Sequence record: NC_105863.1
Length of the DNA stretch: 41,222 nt
Direction: 5' to 3' (one strand)
Origin: a phage
The position numbers and the translations under genes were made by a program. Below the pieces are notes generated by a model that did not search any database, was not told the DNA's origin, and saw nothing but the letters and a program-made list of their open reading frames with translations. This document shows, one piece after another, positions 3,351-39,587 of the stretch. Position 1 is the stretch's first letter. Each line of letters starts with the position of its first letter.

Positions 3351-3371
3351 AGCCCCGAAAGGGGCTTTCTT
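3351..3371 (+). terminator. rho-independent terminator-like hairpin (GCCCCGAAAGGGGC + T-run)
   Basis: Perfect 5-bp GC stem with GAAA loop followed by TTTCTT; same hairpin sequence recurs at 4921-4940. Confidence 0.5.
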
Positions 3372-3376
3372 ATAGT

Positions 3377-4453
3377 ATGCTATTAACTTTAGTACCACAG
3401 GGTTTAACTATGAGCTTACTTACATCCCTCATCAGCCATCAGATATGGCTGCAACGCACCGCATCCGGTGAGGTGAAAGACCTCGCACCGTTCATTCAGG
3501 AGATGCGGGATGAAATCAAACGGCAGGTGCTGTTATTCGGCGACGACGGGCGAAGCACTGCGCGGCTGAATAAACTGTTACGGGACCTTGAAGAAGCACT
3601 GACAGGGATTACAGGTGACTGGCAAACAAAGCTGACAGAAGACCTCAAGGAACTGGCGGCGTATGAGGCTGAGTGGAACGTAAAGACACTGACCGCCAAC
3701 GTAGCTGCGGAATTTGTTACGCCTACCGCTGAACAGGTGTGGGCTGCTGCCGAGTTTCAACCGTTATCGTTGAGCGACAAGCCTGTTGACTTCACTAAGC
3801 TGATGTCAGGTTGGGGTGAAACGGAAGTAGCACGTCTTGTAACCGGCGTTAAGATGGGCTTTGTACAAGGTCAAACAACACGGCAGATTGTTAAGAATGT
3901 AGTAGGCGCCGGTGGGCGGGCTGACATCTCTGAGCGTAACGCCGCTACCGTCATCCGCACCGCGCTGTCTCACGTGTCCAACGAAGCCCGTAACGAGACG
4001 TACCGCCAGAACGACGACATCATCGAGAAGTACGAGTGGGTGTCAACGCTTGACAGCCGCACCAGTACGATTTGCAGGGTCAGAGACGGGATGACGTGGG
4101 AAATTGGTAAGGGGCCGATGCCCCCTGCCCATCCGAACTGCCGGTCGTGCACGGCTCCGGTAATCAGTTCCGAGTTCGACTTCCTCGATAAAGGCGCAAA
4201 ACGCGCGGCTAAAGGCGCGGAAGGTGGCACTCAGGTAAGCGTAGACACCACTTACTACGAGTTCCTTAAACAACAACCGGCGTGGTTTCAGGACCAGGCG
4301 CTTGGTCCTGTTCGCGGTAAGATTTTCCGCAACAGCGGTATATCACCGGAAGAGTTTCGCGTAATATCTGTAGATGGTTTCGGGAATCCGCTCACGCTTA
4401 AGCAGATGGCGGAACTCGATAAACGTGTTGCTGATTATCTGAAAGGGGAATAA
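3377..4453 (+). CDS. head morphogenesis protein (minor head protein, Mu F / SPP1 gp7-like position)
   Basis: 358-aa ORF after portal; C-terminal Cys/His cluster (CRVRDG..HPNCRSC); alternative start ATG 3410. Product by synteny. Confidence 0.55.
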   Translation: MLLTLVPQGLTMSLLTSLISHQIWLQRTASGEVKDLAPFIQEMRDEIKRQVLLFGDDGRSTARLNKLLRDLEEALTGITGDWQTKLTEDLKELAAYEAEWNVKTLTANVAAEFVTPTAEQVWAAAEFQPLSLSDKPVDFTKLMSGWGETEVARLVTGVKMGFVQGQTTRQIVKNVVGAGGRADISERNAATVIRTALSHVSNEARNETYRQNDDIIEKYEWVSTLDSRTSTICRVRDGMTWEIGKGPMPPAHPNCRSCTAPVISSEFDFLDKGAKRAAKGAEGGTQVSVDTTYYEFLKQQPAWFQDQALGPVRGKIFRNSGISPEEFRVISVDGFGNPLTLKQMAELDKRVADYLKGE

Positions 4454-4989: not shown

Positions 4990-5005
4990 AACTATTCGAA
5001 TAGTT
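4990..5005. promoter_or_regulatory. perfect 16-bp palindrome AACTATTCGAATAGTT abutting a -35 element (candidate operator)
   Basis: Sequence equals its own reverse complement; half-site AACTAT/ATAGTT recurs at early promoters (26455, 30162, 32269). Confidence 0.4.
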
Positions 5006-5032
5006 GACTTTTCACCAAAAATGTGCTAAGCT
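5004..5032 (+). promoter_or_regulatory. sigma70-like promoter (TTGACT -17- TAAGCT with extended -10 TG)
   Basis: -35 TTGACT 5004-5009, 17-bp spacer, TGcTAAGCT at 5024-5032; located in 340-bp noncoding gap upstream of spanin genes. Confidence 0.45.
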
Positions 5033-5752: not shown

Positions 5753-5831
5753 TTGCCTTGTATGTTGGAATAATTTATTCTTGACATGTAAATCCGGGTG
5801 GCCCGGATTCCAACGTCCAGGGGACATACTG

Positions 5832-6464: not shown

Positions 6465-7433
6465 ATGTCTCTGTCAGATATGAAGGTTTATAACGACGAT
6501 ATCGTCGGTACCACTATCGAACTGCTTGGTCAGAAAACTGACCAGTTTAACGCAGCCTCCGGTGGTGCAATTGTACTGTCTACCGCTTCATGGCGCGGTG
6601 ACTTCTCCCGTGAGTCTTTCTTTAACCAGATTGCCTCCGCTAAACGCCGCGTTGACCGTTACGCCGCTATCGCGTCTCAGGCAGCTACCGCGCTGACTCA
6701 GGGCGAGCATGTAGGCGTTAAAGTCGCTGGCGGCTTCGGACCGGTACTGTTCGAGCCTGCGCAAATGACTTGGCTTAACGAAGACCCGGCAAGCGCGATT
6801 CGTGCTATTTCCGAAGGCTTCTCTGACGCACTGTTAGCGGACCAGCTCAACACCGCTGTTGGCGCAGCTGTTGCTGCGGTATCTGGTCAGGCCGCGCTGG
6901 TTAACGACGTATCTGCAACCGCTGGCTTGTCCCTGAACGTGCTGAACAACAGCCACGCTAAATTCGGCGACCAGTCTCAGCTGCTGATTACCGACATCAT
7001 GACTGGTGCTGCTTATCACACGCTGGTAGATAAAGCGCTGACTAACGCAAACCAGCTGTTCGTTGCCGGTAACGTTATGGTTGTCGATGTTCTCGGCAAG
7101 CGTTACGTAATCTCTGACATTCCTGCGCTGTACGGGGCCGGTACTCCGAACAAGACTAAGGTCCTGTCCGTAGTTGCAAACGGCATCATCGTTGATAATG
7201 CTTCTGATATTATCAGCAACATTGATACCAGCAACGGTAACACCCGCATCCAGACCACCTGGCAGGCGGATTACAGCTTCGGCCTGAAACTGAAAGGCTA
7301 TAGCTGGGATGTCGCCAACGGCGGTAAATCTCCGCTGGACGCAGAACTGTTCACCGCGACCAACTGGGACAAAGCTGTTGCCGAGAACAAGCACACCCTC
7401 GGTACTCTGGCAATCGCCGACGCGGACAAGTAA
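6465..7433 (+). CDS. major capsid protein
   Basis: 322-aa ORF after scaffold, RBS GAGGA, followed by strong terminator at 7452-7474; assignment by synteny and size. Confidence 0.65.
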   Translation: MSLSDMKVYNDDIVGTTIELLGQKTDQFNAASGGAIVLSTASWRGDFSRESFFNQIASAKRRVDRYAAIASQAATALTQGEHVGVKVAGGFGPVLFEPAQMTWLNEDPASAIRAISEGFSDALLADQLNTAVGAAVAAVSGQAALVNDVSATAGLSLNVLNNSHAKFGDQSQLLITDIMTGAAYHTLVDKALTNANQLFVAGNVMVVDVLGKRYVISDIPALYGAGTPNKTKVLSVVANGIIVDNASDIISNIDTSNGNTRIQTTWQADYSFGLKLKGYSWDVANGGKSPLDAELFTATNWDKAVAENKHTLGTLAIADADK

Positions 7434-13459: not shown

Positions 13460-13651
13460 TCACTTCTCTTTGACATTCGAGTTGCACGCCCAGATTAAGA
13501 TAAATACCCACGGCAGCAGAATCCAGCCAAGAAACAGGTTAGCCATGAATATCGCTAACTTCGCTTTATGGCTACGCATATGGGCCACTAAAAACGGGAT
13601 AAAATAAACTAAAACGATAATAATTAAGAAGAACATAGTAATACCTGTCAT
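13460..13651 (-). CDS. small two-TM membrane protein
   Basis: 63 aa, two hydrophobic helices (FFLIIIVLVYFIPFLVA; LFLGWILLPWVFILIWA); first ORF downstream of the minus-strand promoter at 13686-13722. Confidence 0.4.
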   Translation of the reverse strand: MTGITMFFLIIIVLVYFIPFLVAHMRSHKAKLAIFMANLFLGWILLPWVFILIWACNSNVKEK

Positions 13652-13685: not shown

Positions 13686-13722
13686 TAAGTGAATAGTATC
13701 CTATTATGTTGGGGTGTGCAAG
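13686..13722 (-). promoter_or_regulatory. sigma70-like promoter (TTGCAC -17- TACTAT), inverted duplicate of 35824-35860
   Basis: Reverse complement of 13686-13722 is identical over 37 bp to 35824-35860; reads TTGCAC, 17-bp spacer, TACTAT on minus strand, upstream of minus-strand ORFs 13651 down to 11256. Confidence 0.5.
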
Positions 13723-13828
13723 TAATGTGTTAGAATTATTTTGCGCCTAGTGTCGCACACGAAAAGCGGGTGGTTCCCGCCTGGCGCATTAACCTTAACC
13801 AGTAACCTCTTAACCAAAGGATTAAATA

Positions 13829-26233: not shown

Positions 26234-26421
26234 TTCGCCACCAGAACTAACTCTTTACGCCCGAACGCCGTAACGTTACCGGTTACATCTTCGATAACCA
26301 GTTTACCGTTCGACTCGACGAACACCGTATCAACGGCAACAGGTTGACGTGTCTTAACGTTGAAAATCATGTCACCCGGTACGATGTCACGTGCTGGTTT
26401 GCGGTCATATTCGTGTTTCAT
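26230..26421 (-). CDS. hypothetical protein (63 aa)
   Basis: ORF immediately downstream of minus-strand promoter 26455-26483; ATGA overlap with methyltransferase gene. Confidence 0.4.
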   Translation of the reverse strand: MKHEYDRKPARDIVPGDMIFNVKTRQPVAVDTVFVESNGKLVIEDVTGNVTAFGRKELVLVAK

Positions 26422-26451: not shown

Positions 26452-26736
26452 CTAACTATAATAGTTCGCTATTAGGTCGTCAACCTGTTTAAACGAACCA
26501 ACGACAAAAACATTCGCACCACGTTTACGCATACGCTCGTGCTCACGTAACTGGTGTGGGTCTGGCTTCGTGTTTTCGTCTTTCTTAACCTCGACGAACA
26601 AGACGATGCCGCCGGGTAGAATTACCAGCAGGTCGGGAGCGCCGGAGCGCCCCTCATAGGAAAGTTTACGAACGAGGCCGCCGATAGCCTCGAATCGCTC
26701 TTTTGCGTATTTCTGGATGCGCCCCTCTTTAGTCAT
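26452..26736 (-). CDS. VRR-NUC domain nuclease
   Basis: 94 aa; PD-(D/E)XK-type core GAPDLLVILPGGIVLFVEVKKDE characteristic of VRR-NUC proteins. Confidence 0.65.
   Translation of the reverse strand: MTKEGRIQKYAKERFEAIGGLVRKLSYEGRSGAPDLLVILPGGIVLFVEVKKDENTKPDPHQLREHERMRKRGANVFVVGSFKQVDDLIANYYS
26455..26483 (-). promoter_or_regulatory. sigma70-like promoter (TTGACG -17- TATAGT) with palindromic AACTATAATAGTT core
   Basis: Minus strand reads TTGACG, 17 bp, TATAGT; plus-strand sequence 26454-26466 is the near-perfect palindrome AACTATAATAGTT. Confidence 0.5.
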
Positions 26737-26885
26737 GGGCGCAGAATCCAGGTAATGAAAGCCCCACCTAGAACGGCGACACCGACAAACTTAAAGAACA
26801 GGCCGTAACAGAACATCGCGGCTATTCCCGCACCGAGTAACAGCGCGAGCATGGTTACTATCGTCCAAAATACAAACATTGTCAT
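26733..26885 (-). CDS. small hydrophobic membrane protein (50 aa)
   Basis: MTMFVFWTIVTMLALLLGAGIAAMFCYGLFFKFVGVAVLGGAFITWILRP; ATGA overlaps at both ends (with VRR-NUC start and preceding micro-ORF); below ORF-track cutoff. Confidence 0.35.
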   Translation of the reverse strand: MTMFVFWTIVTMLALLLGAGIAAMFCYGLFFKFVGVAVLGGAFITWILRP

Positions 26886-26971
26886 AATACGCACCCCTCA
26901 CGTTTCGTATGTTCAATACCGCAGCGCGGGCAGATTCGACAGTCTTCTTCATAAAACCAGTAAATTTTCAT
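26882..26971 (-). CDS. Cys-rich micro-protein (29 aa, possible zinc ribbon)
   Basis: MKIYWFYEEDCRICPRCGIEHTKREGCVL; CxxC-x2-C and a fourth Cys; ATGA-coupled to flanking micro-ORFs. Confidence 0.3.
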   Translation of the reverse strand: MKIYWFYEEDCRICPRCGIEHTKREGCVL

Positions 26972-27099
26972 TCCAGCACCCACAGATAAATTGCGATGAA
27001 CATGCCCAATATGGCAACCATCATGCCGTATTGACCCTCGTGACAGTAAACACCGGCGGCGAATCCAGCCAGTACCGCGATAATCAGTTTACTTGGCAT
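26968..27099 (-). CDS. small hydrophobic membrane protein (43 aa)
   Basis: MPSKLIIAVLAGFAAGVYCHEGQYGMMVAILGMFIAIYLWVLE; start overlaps 3' end of polymerase gene in another frame. Confidence 0.35.
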   Translation of the reverse strand: MPSKLIIAVLAGFAAGVYCHEGQYGMMVAILGMFIAIYLWVLE

Positions 27100-29269
27100 A
27101 ACGCTTCATCTCCGCGCCTTCTGCTACAAGAGGGAACCCCTCGGCCCACTCTGGTAATTCGCACATCAATCGTTCCAGTTCTGCGACATTGTATTCTGGT
27201 AAATCTGGTGTCTCGCAGATAATCTCATCGTGAACATGAAGCACAATCGGGTAGCCGTTTGCTTCGACGTTCAGCAGTGCATTAGCCAGCAAATCACGGC
27301 ACAGCGCCTGAGTGCAGTTTTCCACCAGTTTACCAGAGTAGGTGTACTGGAAGCCCCACTGACGGGTTAACTGGTTTTCGCCCTGGTACTTGATGCGCAC
27401 GTTGGTAGACACCCTCCCGTCTTCGTCTGTCTCTTTCGACACGCTTAGCCCAACACCCGGATAAGACATAACGCGGCCCGACGGCAACGTCATCCGCAAC
27501 CACCAACCGGCGACTTTGTTGCCGTTGTTGTCCGTTTCTACGTTGCGCGAAAACTTAACTCCCCGCGGCCCTGCGGTGAACTCTTTGCCCGGATTGCGGA
27601 TAGCTGCCATAGCTGCGTCTTCAATATCCCGCCAGAAAGCTACTGTTTCCGGGTGTGACTCACGCCACATACGCTTGATAGCGTCGCAGGTACGCCACAC
27701 TTTCTTATCAAGAATATAAGATGGTCGGTCATCATTTTCACCTGGACGTGGTGGTCGCTTGGCTTCCTGAATACGCGCCCACTCATATCCACGTGCGGTA
27801 GCAGCCCAGATGTGGTCAGGGAAAGTCCCGTCCATTGTTTTTGCCATATCAACAAGGTCAAGGCCGAGGTTCTTGGCGAACTGTACGAATGCGCCGACAC
27901 CACCCGCGTAGCCAAGTCCAAGTTCACATGCCTTACCAATCTGGCGTAAGTCTTTACGTTCTTTCTTAATGTAATCCGGCTCCATGCCGAACATCTTGCC
28001 TGCGGTTACGCAGTAAATATCCAGCCCGGCACGGAACGTATCAAGCGCGGTTTCTTCGCCAGCCAGCCACGCCAAACCGCGGCCTTCAACGTTCGAGTAG
28101 TCGGCGACGACAAACTTATGTCCGGCTTCCGGGATAATGCAGCTGCGAACCGTAGATGCCGTTAGCTTGGCTACATCAAAACGGCGATGTGCTCGGCCCT
28201 TAAGTAATGCTGAAATACCTTTATCCAGTTCATCATCGTGATAGTACCCACGCGCCAGGTTCTGCGGCTGGAAGCCTTTACCAGCAAATCGTAACGTACG
28301 TTTAGCTCCACCATACTGGATGCAACCGCGACGGCGGTCGTCAGACGAGCGGCCTAACAGCAGCGGGTTATATTTCGTTGACGCAGTGGATGCCACCCCG
28401 AGGCGCATTTCTATAATCGTGCGGGCGTCGTCCGGTAAATCATCGTCAGCAAGCAGGTCGTTAAGCGTAGACTTCTGCGCGTTGTGGATGCGATGCGCAG
28501 GCGCCAGTTCACGCAGAATCGGCAGGAAGTCCTTACCTGTAAGCGAGCCGCCGTATTTACGTCGGGCTTCTTCCTGTAACTGTGCCTTGTGTTTCTCCAC
28601 AGCTTCAATTGCGGCTTCCGCCAGCGCAACGTCGACCTTAAACCCGCGGTCGTTAATTAACTGGTCCAGTTCCAGTACACGGTCTTCGAACTCGGAGTTA
28701 CCCCAACGCGGCAACTTATGGAACACTTCACGCATCGCGGTGATGTCGCTAACGGCGTACTTGATGAACAGCGCCCACTCATCCGGGTGCGTTTCAGCAG
28801 TGTAGCGGCGAATTTTGTAGTTCTTCGGCGTCGGTTTAGAGAAACGCTGAATAAGCGCTTTGCCTCGTTTGTCTTTCGCGTTGTCTGCAGACACGCCAAG
28901 CACTTCGCACAATGCGTCGAGTGAACCCGGCAGCGCGTGACGAAACGCCCAAATCATCGTATCAATGGTGTTGCTTACGGGAATATCAAAACCCCAGCAG
29001 TGCTTCATGATGAGTCTGTCGAACATTGAGCCGTTGTGCCACACCATCTTAATACGGCTGTTTGGTTTCACCAGACGGCGTAACGCGCGGTGCAAATCAC
29101 CCGGCATGTCGCCGCCGTTGGTGCAATCCCATACCTGTACAGGCTCGTCGTCAAAAGCATAGGTACAGATAAGCACTTCGGTAGTCTGGTGTTCGGCATA
29201 AGCGTAGGAACCGACTTTCTTTAAATCGGCTTTGGAGAATGTTTCAAAGTCCAGGTATAAATAGCTCAT
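27089..29269 (-). CDS. DNA polymerase I (family A) with 3'-5' exonuclease domain
   Basis: Exo I motif YLDFETFS; motif A-like DYSNVEGRGLA; motif C HVHDEIICE; ATG 29269 has RBS AAGGAAAAAGAA (ORF track begins at TTG 29323). Confidence 0.9.
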   Translation of the reverse strand: MSYLYLDFETFSKADLKKVGSYAYAEHQTTEVLICTYAFDDEPVQVWDCTNGGDMPGDLHRALRRLVKPNSRIKMVWHNGSMFDRLIMKHCWGFDIPVSNTIDTMIWAFRHALPGSLDALCEVLGVSADNAKDKRGKALIQRFSKPTPKNYKIRRYTAETHPDEWALFIKYAVSDITAMREVFHKLPRWGNSEFEDRVLELDQLINDRGFKVDVALAEAAIEAVEKHKAQLQEEARRKYGGSLTGKDFLPILRELAPAHRIHNAQKSTLNDLLADDDLPDDARTIIEMRLGVASTASTKYNPLLLGRSSDDRRRGCIQYGGAKRTLRFAGKGFQPQNLARGYYHDDELDKGISALLKGRAHRRFDVAKLTASTVRSCIIPEAGHKFVVADYSNVEGRGLAWLAGEETALDTFRAGLDIYCVTAGKMFGMEPDYIKKERKDLRQIGKACELGLGYAGGVGAFVQFAKNLGLDLVDMAKTMDGTFPDHIWAATARGYEWARIQEAKRPPRPGENDDRPSYILDKKVWRTCDAIKRMWRESHPETVAFWRDIEDAAMAAIRNPGKEFTAGPRGVKFSRNVETDNNGNKVAGWWLRMTLPSGRVMSYPGVGLSVSKETDEDGRVSTNVRIKYQGENQLTRQWGFQYTYSGKLVENCTQALCRDLLANALLNVEANGYPIVLHVHDEIICETPDLPEYNVAELERLMCELPEWAEGFPLVAEGAEMKRYAK

Positions 29270-29391
29270 TTCTTTTTCCTTAAATCCAGTGCCTTCGTTT
29301 TGCTGAGTCTTATTTTCATACAATCACGGCAAATCCACACATGCCTGTACCCGGCGCGGTACTCATCCGCGTACCACGGAAGTGGCTTCAT
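29266..29391 (-). CDS. micro-ORF (41 aa) translationally coupled to DNA polymerase
   Basis: MKPLPWYADEYRAGYRHVWICRDCMKIRLSKTKALDLRKKK; its TGA overlaps polymerase ATG (ATGA); below ORF-track cutoff. Confidence 0.25.
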   Translation of the reverse strand: MKPLPWYADEYRAGYRHVWICRDCMKIRLSKTKALDLRKKK

Positions 29392-29431
29392 ATATCGGTA
29401 TACGTGCTTACAGAAAAACATTATTTTCGAC

Positions 29432-29463
29432 CCTTAGTAAAAAGGCCCAATGAAGGGCCTTAG
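29432..29463 (-). terminator. rho-independent terminator on minus strand (AAGGCCCTTCATTGGGCCTTTTT)
   Basis: 7-bp GC stem plus U-run read on minus strand, just downstream of DUF2815-like gene stop (29481). Confidence 0.55.
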
Positions 29464-29480
29464 TTAAATTGATTCAGTTA

Positions 29481-30107
29481 TTAACGGCGACGACGTTCGC
29501 GGCGCGGTGCTTCATCTTCTTCGTCGTCTTCCAGGTCGTTGACGCTTGCAGCGACTTTAGAACCACCGAACGCTTTACCTTCGCCTACGTATTTAATCGC
29601 CAGCAGGTTAACCCCGAGAACTTTATATTTCTGGCTGAACCAGATTTCGACGCTTACGTTAGCGACGCAGCCGCTGTAAACCTGTTCACCTTCAATCTGT
29701 TCGCCGTCTACATTGAAGTCCTGTTCTACCTGAGTCTCGCCTTTTTTAGAGGTTACAATCAGTGGCTGTTTCTGTGCCTTCGCTTTGAAGTAGAAGCCTT
29801 CCGGGAAGTCTTCAAACGGATTGTCACGCTCGGCAATGTCTTTAATCGCGCATTTATCCATGTGCTTTCCTTCGCCGTAGTTGGACTTCATCCACTTCTC
29901 TGCGGCGGCTGCGCCTAACGCTTCTTCAACTACAGCGTAAACAGTGTCGTAGAGCGCATCGATTTGAGCATGGTCAGACGGCAAGATGATAGTCGCGCTG
30001 TACTGGCCTTTAGTGATCGAGCCATCATCGTTTTCACGGTCTTTTTCGCGTTCGAATACGTTAACCCAAGCAGTGTTTACTTTACGCAGATTTAATTTAA
30101 TACCCAT
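29481..30107 (-). CDS. conserved phage replication-module protein (DUF2815-like; possible ssDNA-binding protein)
   Basis: 208 aa with acidic tail DLEDDEEDEA followed by RRERRRR; conserved position between Cas4-like nuclease and DNA polymerase; family assignment from memory. Confidence 0.45.
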   Translation of the reverse strand: MGIKLNLRKVNTAWVNVFEREKDRENDDGSITKGQYSATIILPSDHAQIDALYDTVYAVVEEALGAAAAEKWMKSNYGEGKHMDKCAIKDIAERDNPFEDFPEGFYFKAKAQKQPLIVTSKKGETQVEQDFNVDGEQIEGEQVYSGCVANVSVEIWFSQKYKVLGVNLLAIKYVGEGKAFGGSKVAASVNDLEDDEEDEAPRRERRRR

Positions 30108-30161
30108 CTTAATTTCTCGCTTTTCAGTTTACTCCGGGAAGCTGCCCGGCCAGTGATTAGA

Positions 30162-30190
30162 ACTATAATAGCTAACTATTCAGGTGTCAA
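30162..30190 (-). promoter_or_regulatory. sigma70-like promoter (TTGACA -17- TATAGT) with palindromic CTATAATAG core
   Basis: Consensus -35 and near-consensus -10 on minus strand in the 55-bp gap between nuclease and DUF2815-like genes. Confidence 0.55.
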
Positions 30191-30194
30191 CCCT

Positions 30195-31460
30195 TTATTC
30201 CAAATCTTCTTCACTAACCCGATTCCACTCAGGCCGTTTATCGTCCACCGTTGCAACACATGGCGCACCTGGCTTACGGGTAATAAACGGCTCAAGCGCT
30301 GCCATCTCATCCGCAGAAAGAACTTTTGCTGCCTCCGTAGGGGACATCAATACCTCTTTTTTGAGAATGTCGCCGTGTGACACTTCAATCGCATCGGCAT
30401 CTTTCCACGCACGATTACCCGGGCGACCTTCTACCAGTTTGTACCCTGGCACTTTCTTACCGGAATGCAATGCGGCGGACATCGCTTTCTCAACCTTGTC
30501 GATGTGCTGGCGTAACAGCGGCAACTTCTCATACTCAACTACGAGTTGCTCCGTCGTCAGTTCCAGCACAAAGTCGTCTTCAAGTTCTTCCGCCAGTACA
30601 GAATTAACCGTCTTTGTACGCGCGGCACACTGTTCAGAGAACCGGCACCACTGGCAACCATCGACCGACGGTTTAAAGTCCGACGCTTTCAGGTTCTTCT
30701 TTCCACGGAAATAAGCATCAAGCGCTAACAGTGCCCGTTTCTGTGCGAACTTAGCGAACAGTTCCAGACCTTCGACCGAGATATCCCACTCCGACGCACA
30801 CCCCGCGTACGGCTGGAAGATGACCAGGCGCACTACTGTGATGTTATAACGTCTCTTGAGTCGGCGATAAACACCGAGAGCGTAAAGCATAAGCTGCTTG
30901 TTTTCTTTCGCTTCGACGCGATGCCGTCCTGTTTTCAGGTCACCAATAATGAGCATGTGCTCGTCGGTGTTTGCCAGTTCCTGTACGGCAACAAGGTCAG
31001 CAGTTCCGAACGTTTCAACGCCTTCGTAGCCTGGGTGCAACACCTCAGTAAGATTGACGCGCATTTCCAGCTTAGCGTAAGTCGCTACGTCGATAATCGC
31101 TTTGCAGTAGTCGGTGTACTTGCGCACCTGCTCAATCATGTCCGCCGTAATCAGTACCGCGCCTTTCATTGGGCTGATTAGCGCCTTAATCTGGCCTTTA
31201 CCTTCATCCAGCACGTAAGCGCCGACTTCACGCTCTAATGGCAGAGCAGTGCCTTTGATGTACTGGTTAAGGTGCATCTCCGCTATGGTGTGGCATGCAG
31301 TCCCTGTAACGGCGGCTTTACCAGACGTGTTGGGAATATCTTTCTCACAGGCCAGTGATGCACTGCACGCCAGCCACTTTTTAGCGCCAGACGGCGACAG
31401 TAAGGCGTGCACATCGTTATTGCCGCCGCGTTCCTTTAAAATCATACCCTGCTCTCCCAC
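30195..31460 (-). CDS. PD-(D/E)XK nuclease, Cas4/RecB-like with Fe-S cysteine cluster (DUF2800-like)
   Basis: IIGDLKTG..E.K nuclease core; N-terminal Cys (WLACSASLAC) plus C-terminal CQWCRFSEQC (Cx2Cx5C) as in Cas4/AddB-type 4Fe-4S nucleases; 421 aa. Confidence 0.7.
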   Translation of the reverse strand: MGEQGMILKERGGNNDVHALLSPSGAKKWLACSASLACEKDIPNTSGKAAVTGTACHTIAEMHLNQYIKGTALPLEREVGAYVLDEGKGQIKALISPMKGAVLITADMIEQVRKYTDYCKAIIDVATYAKLEMRVNLTEVLHPGYEGVETFGTADLVAVQELANTDEHMLIIGDLKTGRHRVEAKENKQLMLYALGVYRRLKRRYNITVVRLVIFQPYAGCASEWDISVEGLELFAKFAQKRALLALDAYFRGKKNLKASDFKPSVDGCQWCRFSEQCAARTKTVNSVLAEELEDDFVLELTTEQLVVEYEKLPLLRQHIDKVEKAMSAALHSGKKVPGYKLVEGRPGNRAWKDADAIEVSHGDILKKEVLMSPTEAAKVLSADEMAALEPFITRKPGAPCVATVDDKRPEWNRVSEEDLE

Positions 31461-31714
31461 TGGTCAATTAAATGTCGTGTCTGGTGATGGCAATGCATGG
31501 CCCACCCGTACATCGACTCGAAGACATAAAAGTCAGGTTTGGCGAAAGTCGTGCGCTTAATCTGCGACACGTGACGGCCTATATCTTTAGGCCGTGGTAC
31601 TTTGCCTAAGTACGCCATCTCTTCCATCTGGTGCGAGCCAGACGGCGCACGTAACAGCCATAGCGCCTCTGTGCTATCCCGCCTGTCTACGGCGCGGTAG
31701 AGTTGGTAAATCAT
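31442..31714 (-). CDS. hypothetical protein (90 aa)
   Basis: ORF overlapping nuclease gene start by 19 nt; Cys/His-containing (WAMHCHHQTRH). Confidence 0.4.
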   Translation of the reverse strand: MIYQLYRAVDRRDSTEALWLLRAPSGSHQMEEMAYLGKVPRPKDIGRHVSQIKRTTFAKPDFYVFESMYGWAMHCHHQTRHLIDQWESRV

Positions 31715-31757
31715 AATTCCGACCCTCAGTTAAAGCGGCCCGAAGGCCGCGGGATAG

Positions 31758-32237
31758 TTATTCTTCTTCGAAATACTTGTTCTTGATTGCTGTCAGGCGT
31801 TCCAGGTATTCAGCCAGGTCTTCGTCTTTAATCGCAGCAATCTTCATCTTCTTACCGGTAAACTCTTCCAGCAGTTCGTCAGAATCGTCGCACGCGGCAT
31901 CGCTTGGGCCTTCGTTAATCGCATCGTCGATAGCCTGAATCTGGTCACGAAGAGACTGGTAGTCGACTTCTTCTTTCTCTTCTTTCTCTTCTTCCGGCTC
32001 TGGCGTTGGTTCCTCTACTTTAGCTTTACGCGGCTTGCGTTTGGGCTTCTCTTCTTCTGCCGGTTTAGTGTCAACGACGTCTTCACCTTCTACCGGGATT
32101 TCTTTCGTTACTTCTTTCACAACAGTAGGCTCTATTGTTGCAGTTTCGGCAACGACAACTTGTTTCGCACTGTTCGCAGCAATCAGTTCATGTGCAACTA
32201 CGAAACGTTCCAGTAATACTAAGAATTTCTCTAACAT
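31758..32237 (-). CDS. highly acidic early protein (low-complexity Glu/Pro/Lys-rich)
   Basis: 159 aa; runs such as PEPEEEKEEKEEVD; strong RBS GAGGAG; first gene downstream of promoter 32269-32297. Confidence 0.5.
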   Translation of the reverse strand: MLEKFLVLLERFVVAHELIAANSAKQVVVAETATIEPTVVKEVTKEIPVEGEDVVDTKPAEEEKPKRKPRKAKVEEPTPEPEEEKEEKEEVDYQSLRDQIQAIDDAINEGPSDAACDDSDELLEEFTGKKMKIAAIKDEDLAEYLERLTAIKNKYFEEE

Positions 32238-32268
32238 TATTTATTCTCCTCTCGTTTGGTATGGGCTA

Positions 32269-32297
32269 ACTATAATAGTGAACTATTCACTTGTCAA
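32269..32297 (-). promoter_or_regulatory. sigma70-like promoter (TTGACA -17- TATAGT) with palindromic AACTATAATAGTG core
   Basis: Consensus -35/-10 on minus strand in divergent intergenic region 32238-32361. Confidence 0.55.
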
Positions 32298-32361
32298 TGG
32301 GCTTTTCTAAAATAATTAATATGGTACTATTCACATATCAACTGACTAAGGAGTAATTGAC

Positions 32362-32577
32362 ATGCTACCATCTGAACTAAGCATCCGCGTAGAACAGCGC
32401 CGTAAAGAACTCGGCATCTCCCAGCGCCGTCTGGCGATCCTCACCGGCGTTTCCCAGGGCGCTATTAACCAGCTTGCGCTTGGGGTGACTCAGGACGTCC
32501 GCCCGGCGACGCTGTTTAAACTGGCGGAAGTGCTGGAAGTAGACGCCAAGTGGCTGGCGTTCGGTGAAGGGGCTTAA
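32362..32577 (+). CDS. XRE-family helix-turn-helix transcriptional regulator (Cro/CI-like)
   Basis: 71 aa; HTH signature ELGISQRRLAILTGVSQGAINQL; RBS AAGGAG; only plus-strand gene inside the minus-strand early block. Confidence 0.7.
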   Translation: MLPSELSIRVEQRRKELGISQRRLAILTGVSQGAINQLALGVTQDVRPATLFKLAEVLEVDAKWLAFGEGA

Positions 32578-35013: not shown

Positions 35014-35226
35014 TTATTTATCGCCCGCAAACCACGCGTGCGCAGAATCATAGAAACGACATTTACTTAACACGTCTACTGGCATCTTAATAATGCGTGT
35101 AGGTTCCGACAAATGATTAGGCTTACATATTTCTGCATAGAATCCGCTGTCAGTAATTTCTGACGCAAACTTAAACCAGTATTTAACTTTACCGTTTTCA
35201 AAGTAACAACCCATACGTCCAATCAT
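35014..35226 (-). CDS. hypothetical protein (70 aa)
   Basis: ORF with ATGA overlap on upstream HTH gene stop. Confidence 0.4.
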   Translation of the reverse strand: MIGRMGCYFENGKVKYWFKFASEITDSGFYAEICKPNHLSEPTRIIKMPVDVLSKCRFYDSAHAWFAGDK

Positions 35227-35405
35227 TTCACGTTCTCCTTAATCCATGCTTCAACTTTATTACGGTCAAATGTACCTGGTAAACGGCGACCCATAACCTT
35301 AATACAACAATCAGGGAATTTACCACTGCGCAACCAGTTATTAATTGTCTGACGTGTTACCCCAATACGCTCGGCTACTTCATTCTGTGTCATGTAATGT
35401 TGCAT
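35223..35405 (-). CDS. small helix-turn-helix DNA-binding protein (60 aa)
   Basis: MQHYMTQNEVAERIGVTRQTINNWLRSGKF.. is a classic HTH; ATG 35405 has RBS AGGAGA; ORF track start 35519 would run through the promoter, so the shorter form is preferred. Confidence 0.55.
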   Translation of the reverse strand: MQHYMTQNEVAERIGVTRQTINNWLRSGKFPDCCIKVMGRRLPGTFDRNKVEAWIKENVK

Positions 35406-35436: not shown

Positions 35437-35465
35437 AGTATAGGATAGCGGGAATGTAAAAGCAA
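35437..35465 (-). promoter_or_regulatory. sigma70-like promoter for leftward early operon (TTGCTT -17- TATACT)
   Basis: Read on minus strand about 30 nt upstream of HTH gene start. Confidence 0.45.
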
Positions 35466-35502: not shown

Positions 35503-35532
35503 TTGAAAGTTCTTGACACATGTTTGTATAAT
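35503..35532 (+). promoter_or_regulatory. sigma70-like promoter for rightward transcription (TTGAAA -18- TATAAT)
   Basis: Consensus -10 TATAAT at 35527-35532; divergent from 35437-35465. Confidence 0.5.
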
Positions 35533-35559
35533 GGTTTTGGGACTTGTATATATTACGGA

Positions 35560-35591
35560 GTTGACGAACCCTCCCCGAGGGATTCGTCAAC
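35560..35591 (+). promoter_or_regulatory. long imperfect inverted repeat / hairpin in rightward leader (GTTGACGAACCCTC-CCC-GAGGGaTTCGTCAAC)
   Basis: 14-bp stem with one bulge, no T-run; lies in a 350-bp noncoding AT-rich region. Confidence 0.4.
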
Positions 35592-35824
35592 CCCTCCCAG
35601 ACAGCTGAGATGCTTGTTTTAGGGTTTAAGGATAAGTGTATCTAAATCTCATTTAAAGAAGTAACCCACTGAAATATCTACTGTTTCTTAATGTGCCGTA
35701 GATTCGCAACCGTAAAAATGTAACGATTATTGGGCAGGCTTAAGGCCTACCCTTTAGTTACCAAGTAATAAGAATAAAGGCACAACCTTCCCTAAAGAAT
35801 CACAACGGCAACGTAACTAATCTC

Positions 35825-35853
35825 TTGCACACCCCAACATAATAGGATACTAT
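35825..35853 (+). promoter_or_regulatory. sigma70-like promoter (TTGCAC -17- TACTAT), copy of 13686-13722
   Basis: Part of 37-bp exact inverted repeat; about 35 nt upstream of gene 35888. Confidence 0.5.
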
Positions 35854-35887
35854 TCACTTATCGAAACGAGACAGAGGAGTGAGGGTT

Positions 35888-37141: not shown

Positions 37142-37170
37142 TTGCACACTAAGATAGAATAGGCTACTAT
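37142..37170 (+). promoter_or_regulatory. sigma70-like promoter (TTGCAC -17- TACTAT), third member of TACTATTCA family
   Basis: Same -35 and -10 hexamers as 35825-35853, with related spacer (AATAGGcTACTATTCA). Confidence 0.5.
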
Positions 37171-37201
37171 TCATTTACACAAACGAGAGGGGAGACAGAA
37201 T

Positions 37202-39504: not shown

Positions 39505-39587
39505 TCTATCTTCCGCAATGACTAGTTGACTATTACTCTCACACCAATTATATTTACTCCATCGACAACGAGAACGGAGTAGAGAAG

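Follow-up and report, generated by a model that had tools for sequence, protein, structure and literature searches.

We found that a 14-bp dyad, AATAG-N4-CTATT, is the repeated unit on at least seven early promoters of the phage DNA in sequence record NC_105863.1 (41,222 nucleotides, analysed over its whole length and referred to below as the window). It is quite likely that this dyad is the operator of some phage-encoded dimeric protein, and we favour, with rather less assurance, the reading that a Cro-type dimer of a small helix-turn-helix (HTH) protein of the HTH_3 family, predicted from the gene at 32362-32577, shuts down the early sigma-70 promoters through these sites. The window is the near-complete genome of a Kagunavirus (Guernseyvirinae), a virulent siphovirus of Escherichia coli. 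The 7 kb around the leftward promoters between 26454 and 32297 is 96% identical to the Escherichia phages K1H and K1G, and more than 400 Kagunavirus and Jerseyvirus records match the same region at 80-95%. In the K1H annotation the structural and lysis block runs rightward and the replication operons leftward, and neither an integrase nor CI nor an RNA polymerase is listed there.

Six perfect copies of AATAG-N4-CTATT, at 13692, 26460, 30167, 32274, 35841 and 37158, were counted in the window against 0.04 expected. When one mismatch was tolerated, the count rose to ten sites (1.07 expected), including those at 32318 (the promoter of the HTH_3 gene), 39521 and 4999. A motif-blind count of all perfect inverted repeats with 5-bp arms (5-Nx-5, x = 0-8) ranked the dyad first in the window, followed by terminator stems, and the same count placed it at the top in K1H (7 copies), hz69 (7) and the Jerseyvirus NBSal006 (5). 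The dyads are found on both leftward and rightward early promoters, one per promoter and with no clustered operators in the window; they are situated within TTGACA/TTGCAC-17-TAnnnT hexamer pairs of 17-bp spacing and overlap or abut the -10 each time. A core shared by all lineages, AATA-N6-TATT, occurs 8 times in the window and 9 times in the Pantoea phage AH01. The one-mismatch dyad TATAG-TATG-CTATT at 3371-3384 was not counted as an operator, since no promoter is evident there; it straddles the ATG of the head-morphogenesis gene directly after a terminator and is conserved in K1H and hz69.

The promoters carrying the dyad fall into two classes, whose start sites are placed here from the hexamers. 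In class 1, represented by the three leftward promoters of the replication operons (P1-P3), TTGACA (TTGACG in P1) is followed by 4 nt and the dyad, and the -10 TATAGT begins with the last T of the dyad, which thus spans approximately -25 to -12. All three promoters had been correctly located in an earlier, sequence-only reading of this DNA. P1 (TTGACG-17-TATAGT, 26455-26483, minus strand) lies within the last codons of the VRR-NUC gene, contains in its spacer a perfect dyad (AATAG-CGAA-CTATT in the minus-strand reading, 26460-26473) and drives, after a 34-nt leader to the ATG at 26421, a 63-amino-acid open reading frame (ORF), a methyltransferase and a helicase. P2 (TTGACA-17-TATAGT, 30162-30190, minus strand) drives the genes for an Enc34-type single-stranded DNA (ssDNA)-binding protein and the DNA polymerase, and the position of its spacer dyad (AATAG-TTAG-CTATT, minus-strand reading, 30167-30180) is kept in Jerseyvirus and in the Serratia phage Smarc3. 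P3 (TTGACA-17-TATAGT, 32269-32297, minus strand), with AATAG-TTCA-CTATT (minus-strand reading) at 32274-32287 in its spacer, drives the genes at 31758-32237 and 31442-31714 and an exonuclease gene; the HTH_3 gene runs divergently from it. The leaders of the dyad-bearing promoters measure 32-42 nt from the -10 to the start codon, except for that of P2, which is 55 nt long and contains a hairpin.

In class 2 the order is TTGCAC, 10 nt and the dyad, and the -10 TACTAT is partly formed by the right half-site, so that the dyad covers approximately -19 to -6. The class comprises one leftward promoter at 13.7 kb and two rightward promoters at 35.8 and 37.2 kb, all of the form TTGCAC-17-TACTAT. The leftward one (13693-13721, minus strand) lies within the structural-gene region, has the dyad AATAG-GATA-CTATT (minus-strand reading, 13692-13705) over its -10, and drives an Imm-like superinfection-immunity gene (13460-13651) together with an exonuclease/kinase/ATPase operon; its dyad is conserved in K1H, hz69 and NBSal006 and is represented by an AATAC-type site in AH01. 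The rightward promoter at 35825-35853 (plus strand; dyad AATAG-GATA-CTATT over the -10 at 35841-35854) drives the cluster of small early genes from about 35879/35888, and the second (37142-37170, plus strand; dyad AATAG-GCTA-CTATT over the -10 at 37158-37171) is located upstream of 37202 and the following genes. The promoter of the HTH_3 gene itself is an extended -10 (TGGTACTAT, 32322-32330, plus strand) with no good -35 and a 32-nt leader to the ATG at 32362, and over its -10 lies the imperfect dyad AATAT-GGTA-CTATT (one mismatch, 32318-32331), a candidate autoregulatory site. A weak dyad, ACTAG-TTGA-CTATT (one mismatch, 39521-39534), is centred on the -35 of TTGACT-17-TATATT (39526-39554, plus strand), which is possibly a third register relative to the promoter; it is kept in K1H and in the genome L008, and its Jerseyvirus form is AATAG-TTGA-CTAGT.

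On a single strand almost every site is flanked as AT-AATAG...CTATT-CA, and hence class 1 and class 2 are one element in opposite orientation to transcription. A recognition element for RNA polymerase would not serve in both orientations; a dimer-binding site would. The sequence-only reading had called the -10s of the rightward promoters related to the leftward ones, which understated the case, as the same dyad is present there, reversed with respect to transcription. Three plus-strand promoters (ACTATTCA at 32326, 35849 and 37166) and one minus-strand promoter (13690-13697) have TACTATTCA as their -10 region, and TGAATAGT occurs in 6 copies against 1.05 expected.

The sequence-only reading proposed that dyad-symmetric operators for a small dimeric HTH regulator overlap promoter hexamers. 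The core of this idea is supported by the enrichment, by phylogenetic footprinting, by symmetric changes of the half-sites and by the co-occurrence with HTH_3, but the exact palindrome and the fourth site that it named were not upheld. The palindromes described at the -10s of P1-P3 do exist on the plus strand: AACTATAATAGTT at 26454-26466 (a 13-bp palindrome), AACTATAATAGCT at 30161-30173 and AACTATAATAGTG at 32268-32280. The 9-mer CTATTATAG, common to the three promoters, is present in 3 copies against 0.16 expected, a number reached in none of 100 shuffled sequences, and TTGAC-N18-TATAGT matches exactly at these three promoters only (4 matches against 0.59 expected with at most one mismatch). 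However, the hexamer half-site AACTAT was not enriched over the shuffled background (22 copies against 17.05 expected; 16 of 100 shuffles reached 22), and the motif was therefore re-phased to the AATAG-N4-CTATT dyad. Rather than being the operator, AACTAT-T-ATAGTT arises where the right half-site CTATT of the 14-bp dyad meets the adjoining -10 TATAGT. Moreover, the -10 of the Jerseyvirus orthologues of P1 and P2 is TATATT, a G-to-T change that breaks this palindrome while TAATAG-N4-CTATTA is kept, and the G of TATAGT on which the palindrome depends is only 60% conserved among the orthologues.

The 16-bp palindrome AACTATTCGAATAGTT at 4990-5005, which had been taken for a fourth operator with the same half-sites, does exist and is retained in K1H and hz69. 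Its half-sites are everted (CTATT-CG-AATAG), however, which makes it a site of another kind. It overlaps by 2 bp the promoter-like TTGACT-17-TAAGCT at 5004-5032, upstream of the spanin genes. The palindrome also supplies the left half of a weak dyad, AATAG-TTGA-CTTTT (one mismatch, 4999-5012), whose central TTGA belongs to the -35 of the same promoter and which is conserved in K1H and hz69; its membership in the operator family is uncertain. A single operator family uniting the -10 palindromes with the one at 4990 was rejected in view of the arm spacing (1 versus 4 bp), the everted arrangement at 4990 and the lack of conservation of the -10 G.

The conservation of the dyad was evaluated in orthologous promoters of Kagunavirus and Jerseyvirus that had been picked by flanking similarity and not by the motif (34 distinct P1 and 31 distinct P2 sequences). 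The ten half-site bases were 90-100% conserved in both sets. At the centre of the dyad the four bases of P1 were conserved at 40-80% and the central three of P2 at 60%, and for the bases separating the -35 from the dyad the values were 40-70% in P1 and 70-90% in P2. In addition, the imperfect dyad at 32318 was 100% conserved in 26 distinct Kagunavirus orthologues. The possibility, raised in the sequence-only reading, that the palindromy is explained by the -10 consensus alone does not hold, as the left half-site is conserved outside the -10; this conservation cannot be attributed to the -10 consensus because the left half-site falls in the spacer, a part of the promoter in which sigma-70 requires no particular bases.

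Between lineages the two half-sites change together and symmetrically. Phage AH01 has five perfect AATAC-N4-GTATT sites, all in promoter contexts, and no perfect site of the AATAG type, and at the same promoter positions the environmental phages L050 and L052 carry three TTAGC-NN-GCTAA sites. Three ATTA-N6-TAAT sites in phage St162, with eight specified bases only, are suggestive. Smarc3 carries one perfect and three one-mismatch sites of the AATAG type, including the one in the orthologous P2; the two one-mismatch sites that were checked are both in promoter-like contexts, and the motif-blind count gave no top-ranked dyad in this phage. In Dhillonvirus, which shares the replication module, no AATAG-type site with 0 or 1 mismatch was detected. 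Perfect TAAGA-N4-TCTTA dyads in the genome L043 lie in coding sequence and were dismissed as chance occurrences.

Two small HTH proteins encoded in the window had been suggested as binders, and both folds are confirmed, but only HTH_3 follows the dyad across lineages. The 71-amino-acid protein encoded at 32362-32577 (plus strand), the candidate operator-binding repressor of the XRE/434-Cro-like type, matches Pfam HTH_3 at E=4e-11, above the gathering score, and is classified in PHROGs as a transcriptional regulator/repressor. Its best match in the PDB is 434 Cro (71 amino acids; E=1.1e-6, residues 6-68 of 71), and 434 repressor is also among the best. The gene sits beside the P3 operator (32274) and its own imperfect dyad (32318), 30-90 bp from both, and AH01 has the same layout with its own AATAC type (perfect at 42398, with one mismatch at 42463). 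Each of the examined genomes that carry the dyad (the window, K1H, hz69, NBSal006, AH01, St162 and Smarc3) encodes HTH_3, and the protein is absent from the dyad-free Dhillonvirus with the shared replication module; homologues were found in 542 phage records. Thus, judged from sequence comparisons, the 71-amino-acid HTH_3 protein is the likely binder of the dyad. The second protein (60 amino acids, 35223-35405, minus strand) matches Pfam HTH_17 at E=7e-8 and a PHROGs excisionase/regulator group. It is unlikely to bind the dyad: none is found at its own promoter, TTGCTT-17-TATACT (35437-35465), and the protein occurs only in Kagunavirus and Jerseyvirus and is missing from the dyad-bearing AH01, St162 and Smarc3. 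Its match to MerR_1 is below threshold (17 bits against a cut-off of 21.6). An operator of the MerR type, at which activation works by distorting the DNA of an over-long spacer of 19-20 bp, was also rejected, the spacers here being 17 bp and the protein with the sub-threshold MerR_1 match showing no co-occurrence with the dyad.

According to the mechanism we propose, the host sigma-70 RNA polymerase would initiate early transcription at six or more strong or moderate promoters and at that of the regulator gene. The HTH_3 protein made from its own extended -10 promoter would then bind each dyad as a dimer, and the bound dimer would occlude the -10/spacer region, with early transcription falling as the protein accumulates. 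The one-mismatch site at its own promoter would confer a weaker negative autoregulation.

Several observations weigh against this proposal. The register of the dyad relative to the -35 varies (4, 7 or 10 nt, or over the -35), which fits repression but provides no single geometry, and the class-2 hexamers are only moderate (TTGCAC 3/6, TACTAT 4/6). Not every early gene would be under control, since the dyad is lacking at 35437-35465, the promoter of the helicase-primase/HTH_17 operon. A code relating the recognition helix to the half-site was sought over seven HTH variants without a simple match; the AATAG type is common to Kagunavirus (SQGAINQ), Jerseyvirus (SQSLITH) and Smarc3 (SQGMLNH) despite their unlike helices, and these HTH_3 proteins are only 41-48% identical. 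Two cases also depart from the symmetric pattern of half-site change: the AH01 orthologue of P2 reads AATAT..CTATT instead of AATAC..GTATT, and hybrid half-sites are found in the St162/FSL SP-031 lineage. Finally, a literature search on Guernseyvirinae promoters, operators and transcriptomes yielded no experimental work on binding, transcription starts or expression.

The dyad has been published under another label. In fBC-Eco01 and vB_EcoS-Golestan, seven 'phage RNA polymerase promoters' with the consensus tgAATAGTa-ccTATTat-T were listed with PHIRE (PMC9825357, PMC7203180). The sites PP1-PP7 of fBC-Eco01 (e.g., TGAATAGTATCCTATTATGT; Table S2) are the dyad sites, PP5 being the imperfect site of the HTH gene (PMC9825357); the dyad symmetry, the surrounding sigma-70 hexamers and the link to the HTH gene are all unremarked in these papers (PMC9825357, PMC7203180). 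The assignment to a phage RNA polymerase is wrong, because no such polymerase is encoded (none is annotated in five related genomes) and the sites lie inside sigma-70 hexamer pairs. A more general form of this explanation, that no dedicated regulator exists and that the dyad is a promoter-intrinsic 'phage-specific promoter' element or the trace of duplicated promoter cassettes, is consistent with the published listing and with the fact that the right half-site is partly the -10. It also draws on the identity of the 29-mers at 13693-13721 (minus strand) and 35825-35853 (plus strand), both TTGCACACCCCAACATAATAGGATACTAT, 22 kb apart on opposite strands, which suggests copying or gene conversion between promoters. 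Nevertheless, we consider it unlikely, as the left half-site in the spacer is constrained no less strongly than the hexamers, in contrast to the drifting bases beside it, other lineages have altered the two half-sites in concert, and the dyad occurs in both orientations and several registers within ordinary sigma-70 -35/-10 pairs of a phage encoding no RNA polymerase.

Another possibility is that the dyad is bound by a different phage protein, either HTH_17 or an unrecognised small early protein, or that HTH_3 acts as an activator or timer. HTH_17 has a bona fide DNA-binding fold, the weak class-2 hexamers could in principle need help, and the HTH_3 recognition helix does not simply track the dyad type. 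However, HTH_17 is missing from three phages that have dyads, and HTH_17/excisionase-type proteins typically bind direct repeats as monomers. As regards activation, a dimer over -25 to -12 or -19 to -6 overlaps the sigma-70 contacts, and class-1 promoters need no activator because they are near-consensus with 17-bp spacing. We therefore regard this alternative as rather improbable. The phage could also exploit a host protein, either a transcription factor or a nucleoid protein, that binds the dyad, given that the AATAG type is common to phages of Escherichia, Salmonella and Serratia, hosts with similar regulators. This appears very improbable: the dyad type varies with the phage lineage even among Salmonella phages (AATAG in Jerseyvirus versus ATTA..TAAT in St162), E. 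coli phages of Dhillonvirus with the same replication module have neither the dyad nor the HTH_3 gene, and in a replicon of 62% GC, HTH homologues go together with dyads of this geometry. In addition, we know of no enterobacterial regulator with an AATAG-N4-CTATT consensus. The version in which the operator is the 13-bp AACTAT-T-ATAGTT on the -10, with AACTATTCGAATAGTT as a fourth operator, can point to the existence of the palindromes, the over-representation of CTATTATAG and the retention of the 4990 palindrome in K1H and hz69. It is hardly tenable in light of the unenriched hexamer, the discordant arm spacings and the -10 G, which is only 60% conserved and is replaced by T in Jerseyvirus P1 and P2 without loss of the 14-bp dyad; furthermore, the rightward promoters lack the 13-bp palindrome but have the dyad.

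Among the closest known counterparts of the proposed HTH_3 repressor is the 434 system, in which the operators of Cro and repressor are 14 bp long (ACAA-N6-TTGT). The features of a Cro-type repressor-operator pair that can be read from sequence are found in the window, namely an HTH_3 fold, a multi-copy dyad, its overlap with promoters and the adjacency of the regulator gene. Like its 434 counterparts, the window protein is a single-domain HTH_3 protein of 71 amino acids, and the motif D-x-x-WL-x-x-G near the C-terminus is present in both. The operators resemble each other in being 14-bp dyads with the outer 4-5 bp conserved and a free centre, in the 4-N6-4 layout (here AATA-N6-TATT) and in lying over core promoter elements, with the regulator gene next to a divergent promoter region. 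However, the phage studied here is virulent and has no CI partner, integrase or tripartite OR/OL, and it carries one operator at each of at least seven promoters spread over 24 kb on both strands. The two systems also differ in the sequence of the half-sites, the similarity of the proteins is only about E=1e-6, and binding is predicted here from sequence. With lambda Cro the shared aspect is the proposed role, that of a small dimeric repressor made early which lowers early promoters in lytic growth and autoregulates; unlike it, lambda Cro has a winged, beta-rich fold and 17-bp operators and is part of an immunity switch that is absent here. A lambdoid immunity switch was rejected on the grounds that the dyads are single at each promoter, with no tripartite operators, and that neither the annotations of K1H, NBSal006, hz69 and AH01 nor the ORFs of the window contain CI, an S24 peptidase or an integrase.

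Further parallels to the pairing of such a protein with its dyad are provided by two independent replicons, the Burkholderia phage Magia and an IMG/VR element (L060, 62% GC), whose HTH proteins are 35-38% identical to HTH_3 and whose dyads are on promoters. Magia has a homologous HTH protein and 14-bp ATAAC-N4-GTTAT sites in its immunity region. The L060 homologue is 35% identical and is accompanied by three perfect AATAC-N4-GTATT sites, two of which lie over the -35 and -10 of the operon containing the HTH gene. Both differ from the window in their longer proteins (114 amino acids in Magia, about 160-240 in L060), their temperate, divergent modules of the CI/Cro type and their clustered operators. 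The L060 element also contains, at 7223-7381, four GTCAAC-N3-GTTGAC repeats spaced by 33-78 bp in or beside a 357-amino-acid ORF; these iteron-like repeats are possibly a replication origin. In the Dhillonvirus Escherichia phage PaulFeyerabend (L007), an intergenic dyad TTGGT-N5-ACCAA occurs at 5785, 36805 and 39944, one copy being just downstream of the promoter-like TTGACA-17-TAGTTT, and may represent a different operator system on the related replication module.

Further elements were noted near the dyad-bearing promoters. The hairpin in the leader of the ssDNA-binding protein gene below P2 (GGCCGGGCAGCTTCCCGGAG, 30132-30151, minus strand) is kept in K1H, NBSal006, St162 and hz69. In AH01 its stem is changed on both sides (CCGGG/CCCGG to CCCAG/CTGGG), and in Smarc3 a different GC-rich hairpin occupies the same place; the hairpin may control translation of this gene as an operator or stabilise its mRNA. 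Two extended -10s on the plus strand, TGCTAAGCT (5024-5032) and TGTTAGAAT (13728-13736), are candidates for the promoters of the late operons (spanin/head and tail, respectively); both are without a perfect dyad, and TGTTAGAAT is conserved as TGnTAGAAT in K1H and AH01. Directly downstream of TGTTAGAAT and upstream of the tail assembly chaperone gene there is a gathering-level match to the Rfam int-alpA RNA (RF02996; 13740-13804, plus strand; 36.9 against 35.8 bits, over the full-length model). The early operator at 13692-13705 is located just upstream of the rightward TGTTAGAAT promoter. The idea that this dyad activates the tail-operon promoter, as lambda CI does at PRM, was not retained: its centre is at about -44.5 and not at the class II position of -41.5, and the idea stays speculation. 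Between the divergent early operons, 360 bp (35520-35878) contain no ORF longer than 40 amino acids. A near-consensus promoter-like sequence (TTGAAA-18-TATAAT, 35503-35532, plus strand) is found nearby, and at 35560-35591 there is a long near-perfect hairpin (GTTGACGAA...TTCGTCAAC); this region could be a replication origin or encode a non-coding RNA.

The mechanism proposed here is a textbook one, so the conceptual surprise is limited. The reading of the dyad as a Cro-type operator nevertheless corrects the published polymerase-promoter annotation in Kagunavirus and Jerseyvirus, which are among the most often isolated biocontrol candidates against E. coli and Salmonella. It also defines the early units of these phages (three replication operons, the Imm/exonuclease operon and two clusters of small early genes) and points to one regulator. 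The dyad variants of the different lineages could supply small, potentially orthogonal repressor/promoter parts. A 'repressor' annotation in strictly lytic phages need not mean a temperate lifestyle. More tentatively, Guernseyvirinae and their relatives may accomplish the early-to-late transition by a 'Cro without CI', one repressor of 71 amino acids acting through single 14-bp operators that are fused to the -10s of early promoters and placed genome-wide in either orientation, the specificity of which would have been re-tuned symmetrically between lineages (AATAG, AATAC, ATTAG, TTAGC).

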